Below are positions 275-4,701 of a stretch of DNA of 4,733 bases, piece by piece. Under the pieces are notes generated by a model. It worked only from the letters and a program-made list of their open reading frames with translations, had not been told where the DNA came from and did no database searches. The DNA is from a virus (taxonomy: Duplodnaviria; Heunggongvirae; Uroviricota; Caudoviricetes). A program made the translations under genes and the position numbers. How positions within the stretch are numbered: the first letter of the stretch is position 1; every line of letters starts with the position of its first letter. The stretch is from the IMG/VR virus record IMGVR_UViG_2703718787_000005; one strand, 5' to 3'.

Positions 275-556
275 TTATCCAGGAAATTGTCGTCTGGAGT
301 GGGTGACACTTACTATTTCAACACTCGAAGCGGCTACACGGTACAGAATGATATAGTTAGGATGAGCTACAATCTCACGCAAGCCAAACGCTCTGTCGCT
401 TGATGGGTATAAGTACGGATGTTCAGATAAAGCTAAAACACATGTCTCAATGCGAATCTTTAGCCTGCGTGCGGCATGGAGATTTTCTTTTGCAATATAG
501 GCTACGATCTGACGTAAATCATCACGTGCAGAAGGTAGCCATAAAATGGGCAGCAT
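275..556 (-). CDS. parE2: Type II toxin, ParE/RelE superfamily (ParE-like), 93 aa
   Basis: ORF track protein MLPILWLPSARDDLRQIVAYIAKEN...EIVAHPNYIILYRVAASSVEIVSVTHSRRQFPG has the length and motif pattern I associate with ParE toxins (N-terminal DL..I..YIA, central EHPYLYP, C-terminal YIILYRV...VEI..V.H.RR). Its ATG overlaps the upstream antitoxin stop by one base (TAATG at 558..554). The symbol rests on remembered resemblance to the paaA2-parE2 pair of E. coli O157 prophage; no alignment was run. Confidence 0.85.
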   Translation of the reverse strand: MLPILWLPSARDDLRQIVAYIAKENLHAARRLKIRIETCVLALSEHPYLYPSSDRAFGLREIVAHPNYIILYRVAASSVEIVSVTHSRRQFPG

Positions 557-747
557 TACACACTCCCGCTAGTCGCAGCAATTTGGGCAATGAGATTTTC
601 CATTTCTGCCATTACATCATCATGAGGAATTGCAGGGCGCGGATCTGCAAGATTTGCAGCTACTTTTGCACGTAGCCATTCGTTGTAATTATTTTCTTGC
701 TCAACGGTTTCAAACTCAGAAACCATCGGCGAAAGGGCAGTGTTCAT
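556..747 (-). CDS. paaA2: Type II antitoxin, PaaA2/ParD-like, 63 aa (MNTALSPMVSEFETVEQENNYNEWLRAKV...)
   Basis: I trimmed the 84-aa track ORF to the internal ATG at 747..745, which has a strong RBS (AAGGAGGT, 5-nt spacer). The longer version would overlap the repressor 3' end out of frame and has no RBS. The first ~45 residues match my recollection of PaaA2 antitoxin; the C-terminal ~18 residues do not match what I remember. The stop overlaps the toxin start. Confidence 0.8.
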   Translation of the reverse strand: MNTALSPMVSEFETVEQENNYNEWLRAKVAANLADPRPAIPHDDVMAEMENLIAQIAATSGSV

Positions 748-776
748 AACATACCTCCTTTGGCTTATGATGTAGA

Positions 777-1184
777 CTATGCTCGGTGCCCTTTCTGGGC
801 AGCGAGCCATCTTGCAACAGTGCGCTCCATTGATTCTTTTTTGTCTTTCATGTCTTTAAGCATTTTTTCTTGATCTTCCTCTGGAAATGCTCCGAATGTT
901 TGAAGCAGTTCCATTTGCCTGGGGCCTATTTTCATAGTATCTGGCACCACAACCTGCTCTTCTTCGTTTGGCGGTAACATAAACCAATATGGGGGATAAC
1001 CCGTTACTTCAGAAAGTTTATCAAGATTAGCTGTTGATGGACTTGTGATTCCGTGAACCCACTTTTGTACCGATTGCTGGGCAACACCAATCCTGCGGGC
1101 TAGTTCTGCCTGCTTAAGTCCTGTTTTTTCCAGTACCAATTTTATTCGGTACGTGGTTATTTCAAGGGTGGTCATTCGCTTCAT
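777..1184 (-). CDS. paaR2: Prophage repressor, XRE-family HTH, cI analogue (PaaR2-like), 135 aa, no S24/LexA-like autocleavage domain
   Basis: N-terminal HTH (LEKTGLKQAELARRIGVAQQSVQKWVHG). Divergent from the cro-like gene across a 107-bp operator/promoter region. At 135 aa it is too short for a peptidase S24 domain, and no Ala-Gly / GDSM-type motifs are visible. No Shine-Dalgarno precedes the ATG, so it may be leaderless. The symbol is inferred from gene context and is not verified. Confidence 0.8.
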   Translation of the reverse strand: MKRMTTLEITTYRIKLVLEKTGLKQAELARRIGVAQQSVQKWVHGITSPSTANLDKLSEVTGYPPYWFMLPPNEEEQVVVPDTMKIGPRQMELLQTFGAFPEEDQEKMLKDMKDKKESMERTVARWLAAQKGHRA

Positions 1185-2051: not shown

Positions 2052-3092
2052 ATGGCTAATGCCTGGCTCAGATTATGGCATGACATGCCAAATGACCCTA
2101 AGTGGCGAACAATTTCCAGGGTGTCAGGACAGCCAATCGCAACAGTGATGGCTGTGTATATCCACCTTCTGGTGAGCGCGTCACGAAATGTCACGACATG
2201 TCACGGCGTGTCACTACGTGGTCACATTGATGTCACAACGGAAGATTTAGCAAGTGCACTTGATGTGACGGAAGAAGTAATTGATTCAATTTTGCAGGCG
2301 ATGCAGGGGCGGGTGCTTGATGGAGATTTAATCACTGGATGGGAAAAACGCCAGGTAGCGAAAGAGGATAACGGCAACGTTTCGCAAACCGCGAAATCCC
2401 CGGCAGAGCGTAAGAGAGCACAACGCGAGAGGGAAAAATTACGAAAACAGAATGAGGGGTGTCACGATGAGTCACGCATATGTCACGACATGTCACTACG
2501 AGTCACGACAGATAAAGATACAGATAAAGAATTAAACCCCACACATAACGCGCGCATGCGCGAGAGTGCTCCAACCGGTGAGTCGCATGGTGCGCCGTTG
2601 CAGACAGCCGAACCTGAATACCTGGACGGCCTGAGCGAACCGATCGGGAAATTTTCGATGACTACTGTCTGGCAGCCGTCGTCGGATTTTCGACAACGGG
2701 CAGCAGTGTGGGGTATGGCTCTGCCTGAGCCGGAATTTACACCTGCAGAGCTTGCCGCATTCCGGGATTACTGGATGGCGGAGGGGAAGGTTTTCACGCA
2801 GGTTCAGTGGGAGCAGAAATTTGCCCGCCACGTGCAGCACGTCAGGGCACAGGTAAAACCAGTCAGCAAGGGGGTAAACCATGCAGCAGCACCAGGTGGC
2901 ACCGCATCACGGGCAGTTCAGGAAATTCGGGCAGCACGTGAGCAGTGGGAACGTGAAAACGGATTTATCAGCGACGGAAACGGCCTGGAAGCTGTGGGAG
3001 CTTATGGGGGAGGTGTATTCGAACCGCTGGACTCAGAAGAACGGGGCCGCACCTTCGAAGCTCTGGATTGCCCAGATTGGTGCGATGACTGA
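2052..3092 (+). CDS. Replication initiator (lambda O analogue): replisome-organizer-type N-terminal domain, linker, DnaT-like C-terminal domain
   Basis: I take the start at ATG 2052 (SD AAGAGGTGA upstream); the track ORF begins at an in-frame GTG at 2046. N-terminal motifs W.RLWHDMPNDPKW ... TGWEKRQ resemble the phage replisome organizer N-terminal domain. The C-terminal part (FSMTTVWQPSSDF...FTPAELAAFRDYWMAEGKVFT) resembles the DnaT-like domain common in phage initiators. Two iteron arrays lie inside the gene. Family assignments are from memory. Confidence 0.8.
   Translation: MANAWLRLWHDMPNDPKWRTISRVSGQPIATVMAVYIHLLVSASRNVTTCHGVSLRGHIDVTTEDLASALDVTEEVIDSILQAMQGRVLDGDLITGWEKRQVAKEDNGNVSQTAKSPAERKRAQREREKLRKQNEGCHDESRICHDMSLRVTTDKDTDKELNPTHNARMRESAPTGESHGAPLQTAEPEYLDGLSEPIGKFSMTTVWQPSSDFRQRAAVWGMALPEPEFTPAELAAFRDYWMAEGKVFTQVQWEQKFARHVQHVRAQVKPVSKGVNHAAAPGGTASRAVQEIRAAREQWERENGFISDGNGLEAVGAYGGGVFEPLDSEERGRTFEALDCPDWCDD
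2180..2236. repeat. Iteron array 1: six direct GTCAC-containing repeats at 10/10/10/11/11-bp spacing
   Basis: GTCAC starts at 2180, 2190, 2200, 2210, 2221 and 2232, all in the same orientation and on a helical-repeat period, inside the N-terminal domain coding region. Shares an exact 17-mer with array 2. Confidence 0.7.
2461..2506. repeat. Iteron array 2: five direct GTCAC-containing repeats at 10/11/10/10-bp spacing
   Basis: GTCAC starts at 2461, 2471, 2482, 2492 and 2502, in the linker-coding region of the initiator. This is the position where lambda ori lies within O. Confidence 0.75.
2461..2562. other. Probable origin of replication: iteron array 2, then an AT-rich stretch with GATAAAGA x2 (2509-2536), then a 12-bp perfect palindrome CGCGCATGCGCG (2551-2562)
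   Basis: The iterons / AT-rich / palindrome order is what I recall for lambda ori, but that is recollection. All three elements are directly visible in the sequence. Confidence 0.5.
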
Positions 3093-3546
3093 ACAGCAAA
3101 TCCGTCTGGTCTGTCGTCAGTGCATGGACCGCTGCCGGGCGGGTGAAACGTGGCCCCCGGACCTGGCTGAGTTTGTTGCACTGATTTCGGAGAGTGGGGC
3201 AAATCCATTTGGTCTTACGGTGGATGCAGTGATGGAAGAGTACCGGCGCTGGCGCAATGAATCCTGGCGATACGACGGGAGTGATAAATACCCGTGGCCA
3301 CAGCCTGTGCTGTACCACATTTGCCTCGAGATGCGCACCAGAGGGATTGAACGTCAGATGACTGAAAGTGAGCTGAAACGACTTGCGGAACGACTGTTGA
3401 CCAAATGGGCAAAGAATGTTGGTAACGGCATGAGTGTTCCGCCAGTGCGACGACAACTGGAAGGGCCAAAACACCCGCCAGGGCCAACGCCAATTGAGTT
3501 ACTGAAACAGGAATATGAGCGCCGGAAAGCGGCTGGTTTTGTCTGA
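2881..3546 (+). CDS. Lambda P-like replication protein (helicase loader), up to 221 aa; start uncertain (ATG 2881, 3004 or 3085)
   Basis: The C-terminal two thirds align by eye with lambda P as I remember it (YPW motif; MTESELKRLAERLL vs LTDAELRRKAADEL; FVALISESGA vs FVAWCREEA). Resemblance seems to continue upstream of the ATG at 3085, which favours 3004 or 2881. ATG 2881 has the best RBS (AAGGGGG, 6-nt spacer) but overlaps the O-like gene by 212 nt out of frame. Gene finders that forbid long overlaps would probably call 3085. Confidence 0.65.
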   Translation: MQQHQVAPHHGQFRKFGQHVSSGNVKTDLSATETAWKLWELMGEVYSNRWTQKNGAAPSKLWIAQIGAMTEQQIRLVCRQCMDRCRAGETWPPDLAEFVALISESGANPFGLTVDAVMEEYRRWRNESWRYDGSDKYPWPQPVLYHICLEMRTRGIERQMTESELKRLAERLLTKWAKNVGNGMSVPPVRRQLEGPKHPPGPTPIELLKQEYERRKAAGFV

Positions 3547-3579
3547 ATTTGAGAAATGATTTTGTCGGAGGAAATTTTA

Positions 3580-4293
3580 ATGGAAACCGTTTTTGACGCA
3601 CTGAAAGCACTGAAAAGAGCCTCTTCACAGGAGGTGTCGGCCCGCCTTGGAATCAGCCGCGAAGATGCTGTCAACGAGCTGTGGAAGCTGAAACGCCGTG
3701 GTGAAGCTGATAACAAGGGGTCGATGTGGTGGCTGACGAGTGAGGCAACTGAAATGGCCACAAAAACCACTGCGGAGATGCTGATTAACGCAATTGAACA
3801 GCATGGTCCTCAGTCGGCTGACGAACTGGCGTTAATGTTCGGGATTACCTCCCGCCGGGCGAATTCAACGCTGGCAATGGCAATAAGCAAAGGTCGTCTG
3901 ATTCGAGTAAATCAGAACGGTAAATTTCGTTACTGCCTGCCGGGCGATAATTTACCAGCAGAGCCGAAAGCTGCATCGGTAACGGAAACTGCTGGTAAAG
4001 CCTTTCCTCAGCCAGCAGGTGTTGCGTTACCAGTCCGGGAAGCGGAAACACAGGAAGAAATTAAAACTGAAAGTGTGGCGGTCACAGTGCAGTCACAGCC
4101 GTCGTTCACCAGAAAGCATCCGGATAGTCTGATTTTACCATCGCTGCATGTGGCTAACCGCGAACTGCGCCGGGCAAAAGGTCAGGTTCAGAAGTGGGAG
4201 CGAGTCTGTGCTGCGCTGCGTGAGCTGAACAAGCACCGGGATATTGTCCGACAGATTGTCGATTCCTCCAGTCGTATTGTGTCGGAAAAGTGA
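3580..4293 (+). CDS. Hypothetical phage protein with two winged-helix-like modules and a C-terminal coiled-coil-like region, 237 aa
   Basis: I take the start at ATG 3580 (SD GGAGG, 8-nt spacer) rather than the track's 3556. Two internally similar ~55-aa modules (…[38 protein letters not shown] and …[43 protein letters not shown]), a Pro/Ala/Glu-rich linker, and a charged helical C-terminus. Function unknown. Confidence 0.7.
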
Positions 4294-4308: not shown

Positions 4309-4701
4309 ATGGCAAGAGTATTTACACAGGAAGAGCGGGAAGAAGTGAAGGCGCGCATTGTGGAATTCGTGCGCCTGAGCGGACGAGAAACTTTTCGACA
4401 ACTGGCAGATAAAACGGGTGTCAGTAAGACCGCTATTCGTCGTTTATCTGGTGCGCTTGCGGCCAGTGGTGATGTCTGGCTCTCTGATTGCGGGGTATTT
4501 CCATCAGAGCAGGCGTATCGCGTATGGCGTAAGACACCGGAGAAGGCTGCTGACCCGACACTGATTCGAAAGTTACCTGACGGAGAAATACGTCGTTACA
4601 ACAGATGGCAGAACATAATTTGTCGTGAGTGCCGCCAGAGCGAGGTTATGCAGCGTGTGCTGGCGTTCTATCGGGGAAACTTTCAGGAGGTGATGGAGTG
4701 A
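4309..4701 (+). CDS. ren: Ren-like protein, 130 aa
   Basis: I take the start at ATG 4309 (SD GGAGG, 5-nt spacer); the track ORF starts at TTG 4294. The C-terminus ...ICRECRQSEVMQRVLAFYRG resembles the lambda Ren C-terminus as I remember it (…ECRQSAAMKRVLAVYG…), and an HTH-like segment (ETFRQLADKTGVSKTAIRRLSGAL) precedes it. It follows the P-like gene, as ren does in lambda. Recollection, not alignment. Confidence 0.65.
   Translation: MARVFTQEEREEVKARIVEFVRLSGRETFRQLADKTGVSKTAIRRLSGALAASGDVWLSDCGVFPSEQAYRVWRKTPEKAADPTLIRKLPDGEIRRYNRWQNIICRECRQSEVMQRVLAFYRGNFQEVME

Follow-up and report, generated by a model that had tools for sequence, protein, structure and literature searches.

We analysed a 4,733-nucleotide (nt) stretch of Caudoviricetes DNA (IMG/VR record IMGVR_UViG_2703718787_000005), referred to here as the window, which spans the part of a Rac-type lambdoid prophage of Escherichia coli concerned with immunity and replication. 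Its two replication genes encode a ydaU-type initiator ("O-like", hereafter O) and a helicase loader of the lambda P family ("P-like", hereafter P), and the 3′ end of the initiator frame shares 212 nt (2881–3092) with the 5′ end of an open loader frame. Comparison with homologues makes it very likely that P starts at ATG 2881, well upstream of its annotated starts, and that both overlapping frames matter. The features on which this interpretation depends are the following, with Shine–Dalgarno abbreviated to SD, open reading frame to ORF, amino acids to aa and AlphaFold2 to AF2.

2052–3092, plus strand: initiator (O-like, ydaU-type) coding sequence of 346 aa, recognized from its ORF and a Pfam DnaT match of 62 bits; homologues are annotated as DUF1376 or DnaT-like
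2868–2880, plus strand: SD-like sequence AAGGGGGT (2868–2875) and a 6-nt spacer, containing the P-frame stop TAA (2875–2877)
2881–3546, plus strand: helicase loader (P-like, lambda P family) coding sequence with a proposed length of 221 aa, recognized from its ORF, PF06992, a conserved ATG with SD, and AF2 and Foldseek results
2881–2970, plus strand: overlap segment a, O-dominated, with the O helix A285–G304 (ASRAVQEIRAAREQWERENG, 2904–2963) over the predicted disordered P leader (aa 1 to ~30)
2971–3092, plus strand: overlap segment b, P-dominated, with P aa ~31–70 (C-terminal part of helix alpha1, and alpha2–3) over O aa 307–346
3004–3006, plus strand: ATG of M42, inside helix alpha1; the start chosen by PGAP in Salmonella, Citrobacter and Klebsiella (180–181 aa)
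3085–3092, plus strand: ATGACTGA, the ATG of M69 (start of the RefSeq "replication protein P") overlapping the O stop TGA (3090–3092)

Start signals of the loader gene and their conservation

The initiator frame is open throughout from GTG 2046 or ATG 2052 to the TGA at 3090–3092, and translation of O to 3092 is obligatory because there is no earlier stop. The P frame opens just after the TAA at 2875–2877 and runs from ATG 2881 to 3546, with further in-frame ATG codons at 3004 (M42) and 3085 (M69). Position 2881 is codon position 2 of O, so P lies in frame +1 of O. A preliminary description of this DNA had reported the open initiator frame and the 212-nt overlap, both of which the ORFs confirm, and had ranked 2881 as having the best ribosome-binding site of the three candidate starts. 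The calculated duplex energies with the anti-SD sequence agree with that ranking, at −11.9 kcal/mol for 2881, −6.5 for 3004 and −5.3 for 3085. The context of the upstream start, GTAAACCATG, is common to the window and the Vibrio phages D62 and 1.205.O.

Homologues were collected from 37 species-level Enterobacterales loci, 80 viral contigs and several annotated records, anchored on the WPPDLAEF motif of P, and comprise 75 distinct loci. In 72 of the 75, no stop interrupts the P frame over the 80 or more codons before the motif, and an ATG is found at codon −80 to −91. The rest comprise L041, which is frameshifted, L045, a pseudogene from a symbiont, and L042, an orphan gene whose leader is shorter. 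Interruption of this frame by stops in homologues had been named beforehand as an observation that would speak against dual coding, and only the two decayed copies, L041 and L045, have an interrupted frame. In enterobacterial loci the overlap has a median length of 212 nt (range 182–224), and the upstream ATG often lies directly 3′ of a P-frame stop. It is preceded by an SD with a duplex energy of −7 kcal/mol or lower in 69 of 75 loci (GGAGGT, GGGAGG or GAGGT at 5–9 nt). By these comparisons ATG 2881 is the only conserved start upstream of ~2980. P homologues of 212–223 aa were found down to 48% identity, and L38 and W39, both N-terminal to M42, show no variation across the range from E. coli to Vibrio phages.

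In L041, from Leclercia adecarboxylata NCTC13032, the reading jumps from the P to the O frame at a run of G residues after the ATG (~2560–2690; the jump falls between …WQVMG and GNILEP…). A sequencing error in the homopolymer, or decay to a pseudogene, is the probable reason, and the rare DUF1376–PF06992 fusions in databases probably have the same cause.

The relationship extends to phages of Vibrio. A tblastn search with the 221-aa P against phage genomes found 124 Vibrio phage records that align over aa 1–132 or 38–132 with ~31–43% identity; a match over the N-terminal ~130 aa has ~31% identity (E = 1e-16), and L38, W39, Y46, the KNG motif and W62 are invariant. Five Vibrio phage records were examined, representing three distinct gene versions (D62 and 1.205.O; 199E37-1 and 1.214.O; D173). 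All five have an ATG preceded by an SD and an ORF of 210–220 codons in frame +1 of the initiator, overlapping its 3′ end by 191–212 nt, and in these records the loader gene is annotated too short or is absent from the annotation, as in Vibrio phage 1.205.O (L131). A Pfam lambda-P match was not obtained for the C-terminal half of the Vibrio loaders.

Orphan P genes with no initiator upstream (L042 and L033) retain the pattern W.LW..M..Y.NRW..KNG, and the former O frame of L042 is interrupted. Both are intact P-like genes of Erwinia. One lies between ttcA and dbpA in Erwinia sp. CGal63 (L033, 2492–3118), and the other between a PTS transporter gene and a LysR gene in Erwinia sp. MMLR14_017 (L042, 2471–3040). 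No initiator or other prophage genes occur near them. They may have been left behind by prophages or have been domesticated as loaders, much as in the case of VdhL of Vibrionaceae.

The P protein matches PF06992 with 58 bits (cut-off 26), aa 59–188 aligning with profile positions 31–161, and a profile of 73 homologues matches the lambda P chains 8v9t and 8v9s with E values of ~2e-6 (1.6e-6 for 8v9t). The AF2 model of the 221-aa protein, built with these 73 homologues, has a mean predicted local distance difference test (pLDDT) score of 79.7. In this model aa 1–24 are disordered (pLDDT <50 for aa 1–14 and 17–24), helices are predicted at 25–46, 48–54, 60–67 and 71–86, and pLDDT is ~89 for aa 31–60. 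Given that M42 falls within the confidently predicted helix 25–46 and M69 after helix 3, a start at 3004 or 3085 would cut the predicted fold. Lambda P chains make up all the top PDB matches of the model in Foldseek, and the best of them is the one chain that is nearly complete (9oa1_Z, E = 5.7e-7, 222 columns); the TM score to this chain is modest (~0.48) because the domains are flexibly linked. The predicted layout of P consists of a leader (aa 1–24), a helical domain (25 to ~105), a lambda-P core (~114–181) and a C-terminal tail. Lambda P is composed of a disordered N-terminal lasso (aa 1–29), domain II (30–119), domain III (120–192) and a C-terminal lasso (PMC12661323), and the modelled P would thus share both its fold and its domain layout.

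Detectable sequence similarity to lambda P covers less of the protein. With hhalign, the P family profile aligns with lambda P only over aa 83–190 and with the P protein of phage TL-2011b only over aa 73–218. We rejected the idea that the first 80 aa of P are homologous to lambda P, as the hhalign alignment starts only at aa 83–87, and a lambda-like N-terminus is therefore not what supports the early start. The resemblance to lambda P that had been described upstream of 3085 stands in part: the PF06992 alignment does begin at aa 59, 10 residues before M69, whereas the hhalign alignment does not reach that far. By these alignments the N-terminal part of P is a subfamily-specific domain common to the Vibrio phage proteins and is not recognizably lambda-P-like.

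At least five different starts of this loader have been annotated, giving proteins of 136, 140, 153, 180–181 and 221 aa (E. coli, L004–L007; Rac-SA53, L001; PPompW, L002; Chris1, L127). RefSeq and PGAP place the start at the equivalent of 3085 in E. coli and in phage Rac-SA53 (153 aa, 8-nt overlap), while PGAP uses the equivalent of 3004 in Salmonella, Citrobacter and Klebsiella (180–181 aa). The protein has 140 aa in PPompW records and 136 aa in Citrobacter phage Chris1; older nr and metagenome gene calls give 212–223 aa, including 221 aa. A start at 2881 would make this a systematic annotation error, with P 68 residues short in RefSeq E. coli records and 41 short in the other genera. The affected module is very common in E. 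coli, including O157 and Stx-phage-bearing strains. The annotated 153-aa P, if expressed, would be a fragment without the leader and three helices.

Constraint on the two frames and alternative readings

Substitutions were examined in alignments of three divergence classes. Up to ~2955 the third codon position of O is the most variable, giving a periodicity of the O type. From ~2956–2985 onwards the third position of P is the most variable and the O wobble positions are nearly invariant, as in the P-only part, in the three divergence classes. This P-type periodicity indicates that purifying selection on P begins 20–45 nt upstream of ATG 3004. Segment b encodes the P residues L38, W39, Y46, W50, K53-N54-G55, W62 and I66, over an acidic, glycine-rich part of O (aa 307–346) with a net charge of −8 over the last 34 residues.

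Synonymous sites are also constrained. In segment a, O position 3 is less diverse than it is in the O-only region (p = 0.003, 0.002), and base usage at this position is shifted to A and C with T depleted (p = 0.003). Diversity at P position 3 is lower in the overlap than in the P-only part (0.069 versus 0.197, p = 6e-4; 0.40 versus 0.51, p = 0.011; 0.54 versus 0.63, p = 0.019). The analysis of synonymous sites in both frames that the preliminary description had proposed as a check thus gives reduced diversity in both sub-segments and a switch of periodicity between them. The Rfam scan of the window at gathering thresholds gave no match, so no known RNA element accounts for the constraint, and a Pfam scan of the overlap-encoded peptides alone (P aa 1–68 and O aa 277–346) found no family.

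The composition of P codons in the overlap is unusual. Position 3 of P is G in 50.6% of codons in the overlap and in 32.9% in the rest of the same genes, with this bias in all 25 loci, and there is an excess of AAG for Lys (33/43 versus 82/213) and of TCG for Ser (35/59 versus 44/212). A G-rich P wobble makes the O codons start with G (D/E/G/A/V), which results in an acidic O tail: 25% of its residues are acidic, against 13% in the rest of O, and its net charge is −3 to −8. When synonymous codons of P are shuffled, the O frame stays open in only ~0.2–0.3 of trials per locus, and it is in fact open in 25 of 25 intact loci. No intact locus ends O before the acidic stretch, though one T at many of the P wobble sites would do so. 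These patterns point to selection on both frames within the overlap, less strongly for the P leader, where they consist of composition and openness. The O tail itself is likely to be under selection.

Several observations weigh against an early start or against selection in both frames. The SD sequences of the Vibrio loci are weak (−3.5 to −6.8 kcal/mol). If O codons are shuffled synonymously so as to preserve the O protein, the P leader stays open in ~57% of trials for the window and in ~0.5 per locus; openness of the leader is weak evidence alone and counts here only in combination with a conserved ATG and SD. The leader is rich in Q, S, P, N and T and is variable and poorly conserved in sequence, so that only its openness, start signals and composition argue for its translation. 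The loci are phylogenetically related, and pooled p-values overstate their independence. We rejected the O-tail motif EPLD.EE[R/W]G, D[W/R] as a case of independent protein conservation, since it is a mechanical by-product of conserved P codons: SNRW in P yields FEPLD in O, KNG yields EERG, and Asn AAC or AAT followed by GG yields the R/W alternation. The case for selection on the O tail is thus made by its composition, by constraint at synonymous sites and by the avoidance of stops. Proteomic or ribosome-profiling data for any of the three starts were not found in the literature; P translated from ATG 2881 would include the peptides MQQHQVAPHHGQFRK… and TDLSATETAWK.

The preliminary description had left open a choice between dual coding from 2881 and a start at 3004 or 3085. 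Initiation at 3004 would reduce the overlap to 89 nt and would leave the upstream frame open by chance or through the composition of O, which agrees with the probability of ~0.5 per locus for an open leader. The codon is ATG in 73 of the 75 enterobacterial loci and is the choice of PGAP in three genera, and a strong SD (−10 to −13 kcal/mol) precedes it in L020, L022, L026 and L043. The SD strength at this position nevertheless varies from −4 to −13 kcal/mol among loci and is weak in the window and in most others, while the upstream ATG and SD are conserved. The codon is Leu in L027 and Thr in the Vibrio D62/1.205.O lineage, M42 lies within a confident helix, the periodicity of P begins upstream of it, and the invariant L38 and W39, present also in the orphan genes and in Vibrio phages, would be lost. 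We regard 3004 as the sole start as quite improbable, although it could serve as a minor secondary start. Still less can be said for initiation at 3085, coupled to termination of O through the 8-nt overlap ATGACTGA, with the upstream frame fortuitous. Its ATG/TGA layout is like that of classic coupling, and it is the annotated start in PGAP and GenBank records of E. coli and phage Rac-SA53. The codon is ATG in 63 of 75 loci, but in the other 12 it is not, and 10 of these codons are not start-capable (CTG, TTC, TGC, TGT, CTC); the position is Leu, Phe or Cys in many loci, and duplex energies of only −3 to −6 kcal/mol amount to no SD. This start would also remove three confident helices, the Pfam alignment already begins upstream of it, and 2971–3084 evolves with P periodicity while the O wobble is nearly invariant; we consider it very improbable. 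The conserved ATG and SD, the periodicity, L38 and W39, and the variable M42 and M69 positions all favour dual coding from 2881.

A different possibility is that both frames are translated and only one is functional at each place, O beyond ~aa 306 being tolerated read-through and the P leader a spacer. The derivation of most O-tail motifs from conserved P codons fits this, as do the low complexity of the tail, the barely conserved leader sequence and the drift of the O stop, which lies 22 to 94 nt before the WPP motif. The reduced variability and strong G bias of P synonymous sites, with AAG and TCG in large excess, do not, and neither does the finding that no intact locus truncates O before its acidic stretch. 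The O frame is interrupted in the orphan gene L042, where there is no initiator, and the overlap layout persists as far as Vibrio phages. On balance this explanation seems unlikely. Least credible of all is an O–P fusion made by a programmed +1 (or −2) ribosomal frameshift within 2878–3092. The frames are adjacent, and fused proteins exist in databases (P0091, 333 aa with PF06992 and DUF1376; P0105, 385 aa), but these are single-member clusters that look like frameshift errors or pseudogenes of the kind seen in L041. An SD and ATG are conserved directly after the P-frame stop, no conserved slippery site was noticed, and the orphan P genes initiate at start codons of their own.

On the favoured reading, the DNA is very probably divided between the two frames as follows. 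Ribosomes would initiate the 221-aa loader at ATG 2881 from an SD inside the initiator gene, while those translating O would read to the TGA at 3090–3092 and so produce an 80-aa tail, made up of a conserved helix (aa 285–304) and an acidic glycine-rich end. Constraint would be partitioned, with the conserved helix of O placed over the unconstrained P leader and the conserved helices of P over the low-complexity end of O, and the composition of the O tail would be tuned through synonymous sites of P.

Initiator tails, loader N-termini and mosaicism

The O tail would, in this arrangement, act as a docking element for the N-terminal domain of the loader. We infer this role from the co-inheritance of tail and loader N-terminus as a module, and we judge the chances of it being correct to be about even. 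Both contact surfaces would then be on the same DNA, and recombination could not separate a cognate initiator–loader pair, which would explain why the segment is found behind unrelated initiator bodies.

These bodies are diverse. The tail and P follow a DnaT domain in the window, L031 and L043, a DUF1376 domain in L027 and L029, Phage_rep_O in L024, HTH_36/DnaD_N in L026, D62 and D173, and DUF6291 in 199E37-1; several further bodies have no Pfam match. We put forward, as slightly less likely than not, a portable adaptor cassette formed by the 212-nt segment, whose two frames would encode the loader-docking tail of the initiator and the initiator-docking N-domain of the loader. From these domain assignments, four or more initiator bodies of unrelated kinds (DUF1376/DnaT, lambda-O type, HTH_36/DnaD_N and DUF6291) appear to have acquired it. 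The cassette likewise appears to be joined to two loader C-terminal halves, a lambda-P type in enterobacteria and another, possibly VdhL-like, in Vibrio phages.

The converse arrangement, in which related initiator bodies carry other tails, is found in phage TL-2011b. Its initiator (L126, 1694–2518) has a DnaT domain with 80% aa identity to that of the window, and the similarity ends at ~2847, just before the start of P. Beyond this point TL-2011b has a lambda-O-like tail (…WNNTDWIEGVWDE) and then a lambda-like P that overlaps by 29 nt; lambda O itself ends in …LTNTDWIYGVDL. In phiV10-type phages (L128, 55–528) and Pantoea phage PdC23 (L134, 527–1288), unrelated bodies have a common tail (…PHWNS.EAWE…), and the next gene in both is a lambda-like P with a 4-nt overlap. 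From these alignments, the extreme C-terminus of the initiator is a part that travels with the type of loader N-terminus, as expected if the tail docks the loader.

Short motifs are shared in the same way. NTDWI.GV is common to lambda O (L008, 87–986) and the DnaT-type initiator of TL-2011b, and HWNS.EAWE is common to the DnaT-type initiator of phiV10 and the Lin1244_N-type initiator of PdC23. Taken together, the tail sequences suggest a general code that matches initiator tails to loader N-termini.

The initiator gene of the window is itself a mosaic of three pieces. In its N-terminal part with the iterons (to ~2531) it resembles phages Evi and Tritos, in the DnaT domain (2531–2847) TL-2011b, and in the tail with P from ~2848 Rac-SA53 and PPompW.

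If the cassette interpretation is right, the adaptor would be ancient and would offer phages a general way to keep initiator–loader specificity while exchanging origins. The pair provides a testable example of two tandem replication genes that share 70 codons in different frames, in which each protein is ordered where the other is disordered. Should the tail dock the loader, it would show how initiator–loader specificity survives the mosaic recombination of lambdoid phages, and contact surfaces would be identified for the family to which this loader belongs, which is related to lambda P and may also be related to the VdhL loaders.

The replication region and related systems

The predicted O protein has an N-terminal part whose gene segment bears iterons, a DnaT DNA-binding domain (PF17948, 62 bits against a cut-off of 25, aa 201–267) and the 80-aa C-terminal tail. 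The DUF1376 N-terminal domain (PF07120) gave no Pfam match at E ≤ 0.01 in the O of the window; DUF1376 is the PGAP name of its close homologues, and PF07120 is matched in L027 and L029. The N-terminal part of O in the window belongs to a different piece of the mosaic. Repeats of the TGTCACG type at 10-bp spacing form two clusters inside the initiator gene (2179–2240 and 2460–2510), with 3–4 copies each and ~270 bp between the clusters. Two copies of an A/T-rich direct repeat, ACAGATAAAGA, follow the second cluster (to ~2530). The iterons and this putative unwinding element are probably the phage origin, located inside the initiator gene as in lambda.

The other genes identified in the window are as follows.

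275–810, minus strand: ParE/PaaA2 toxin–antitoxin pair
777–1184, minus strand: cI/DicA-like repressor
1292–1558: YdaS/Cro-like gene
1555–1980: YdaT-like gene
3580–4293: DUF1627
4309–4701: DUF977

The ParE toxin (PF05016, 275–556, minus strand) and the PaaA2-type antitoxin (PF21217, 556–810, minus strand) overlap by 1 nt and lie just past the 3′ end of the repressor gene. The antitoxin ORF runs into the 3′ end of the repressor gene, and translation of the antitoxin may in fact begin further inside the ORF. The ydaS-like gene ends 4 nt into the ydaT-like gene (ATGA, 1555–1558), the usual layout for coupling, which contrasts with the 212-nt overlap downstream.

Of 5,426 complete E. coli genomes, 1,286 carry the region from 2600 to 3600, which includes the tail, P and downstream sequence, with 87–99% identity, and the same module occurs in phage Rac-SA53 and PPompW prophages. 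The Rac-type arrangement ydaS-ydaT-ydaU-"ydaV" of Rac-SA53, PPompW and O157 prophages is this module (86–95% nucleotide identity) with no biological difference; the difference lies in its phage and RefSeq annotation, which never shows the 212-nt overlap. A description of the O–P overlap was not found in the literature.

In lambda, the C-terminal part of O interacts with the loader. The lambda O–P pair (PF04492 and PF06992; structures 6BBM, 8V9T and 9OA1) has the same gene order as the window, with cro/cII-like genes, an initiator with internal iterons, and a loader. The loader core is homologous, the loader as a whole has the same four-part layout, and lambda O residues 156–299 were used for the complex (PMC12661323). 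The two pairs differ in that the overlap between lambda O and P is 4 nt (ATGA), against 212 nt in the window, and in that the lambda initiator is of the O type and that of the window of the DUF1376/DnaT type. The lambda O tail is also unrelated to that of the window, and the N-domain of the window loader is not detectably lambda-like by hhalign.

The Vibrio phage loader-like genes are closer in one respect, as the N-terminal 130 aa are homologous and both the +1 frame relation and the overlap of 191–212 nt are the same. They differ from the window in lacking a Pfam lambda-P C-terminal half and in their initiator bodies (HTH_36/DnaD_N and DUF6291). Phage-derived VdhL loaders replaced DciA in Vibrionaceae. 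The Vibrio phage loaders are possibly viral relatives of VdhL1/2, to which we liken them by description and by the neighbourhood reported in PMC11087808. Some VdhL proteins are ~30% identical to PF06992 proteins and have lambda-O-like neighbour genes, and a variable N-terminal region of VdhL is needed for loading (PMC11087808); the word overlap has no occurrences in that paper.

Long out-of-frame overlaps are known from phiX174 (A/B/K and D/E) and from lambda Rz/Rz1. These likewise place two frames on one DNA, with a constrained part over a disordered or low-complexity part. In the window, the products would be direct partners in one pathway, and the ends of tandem genes are joined with no nesting of one gene in the other. 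Set against these systems, what is new is a long conserved overlap within known kinds, namely overlapping phage genes and a replication pair of the O–P type.

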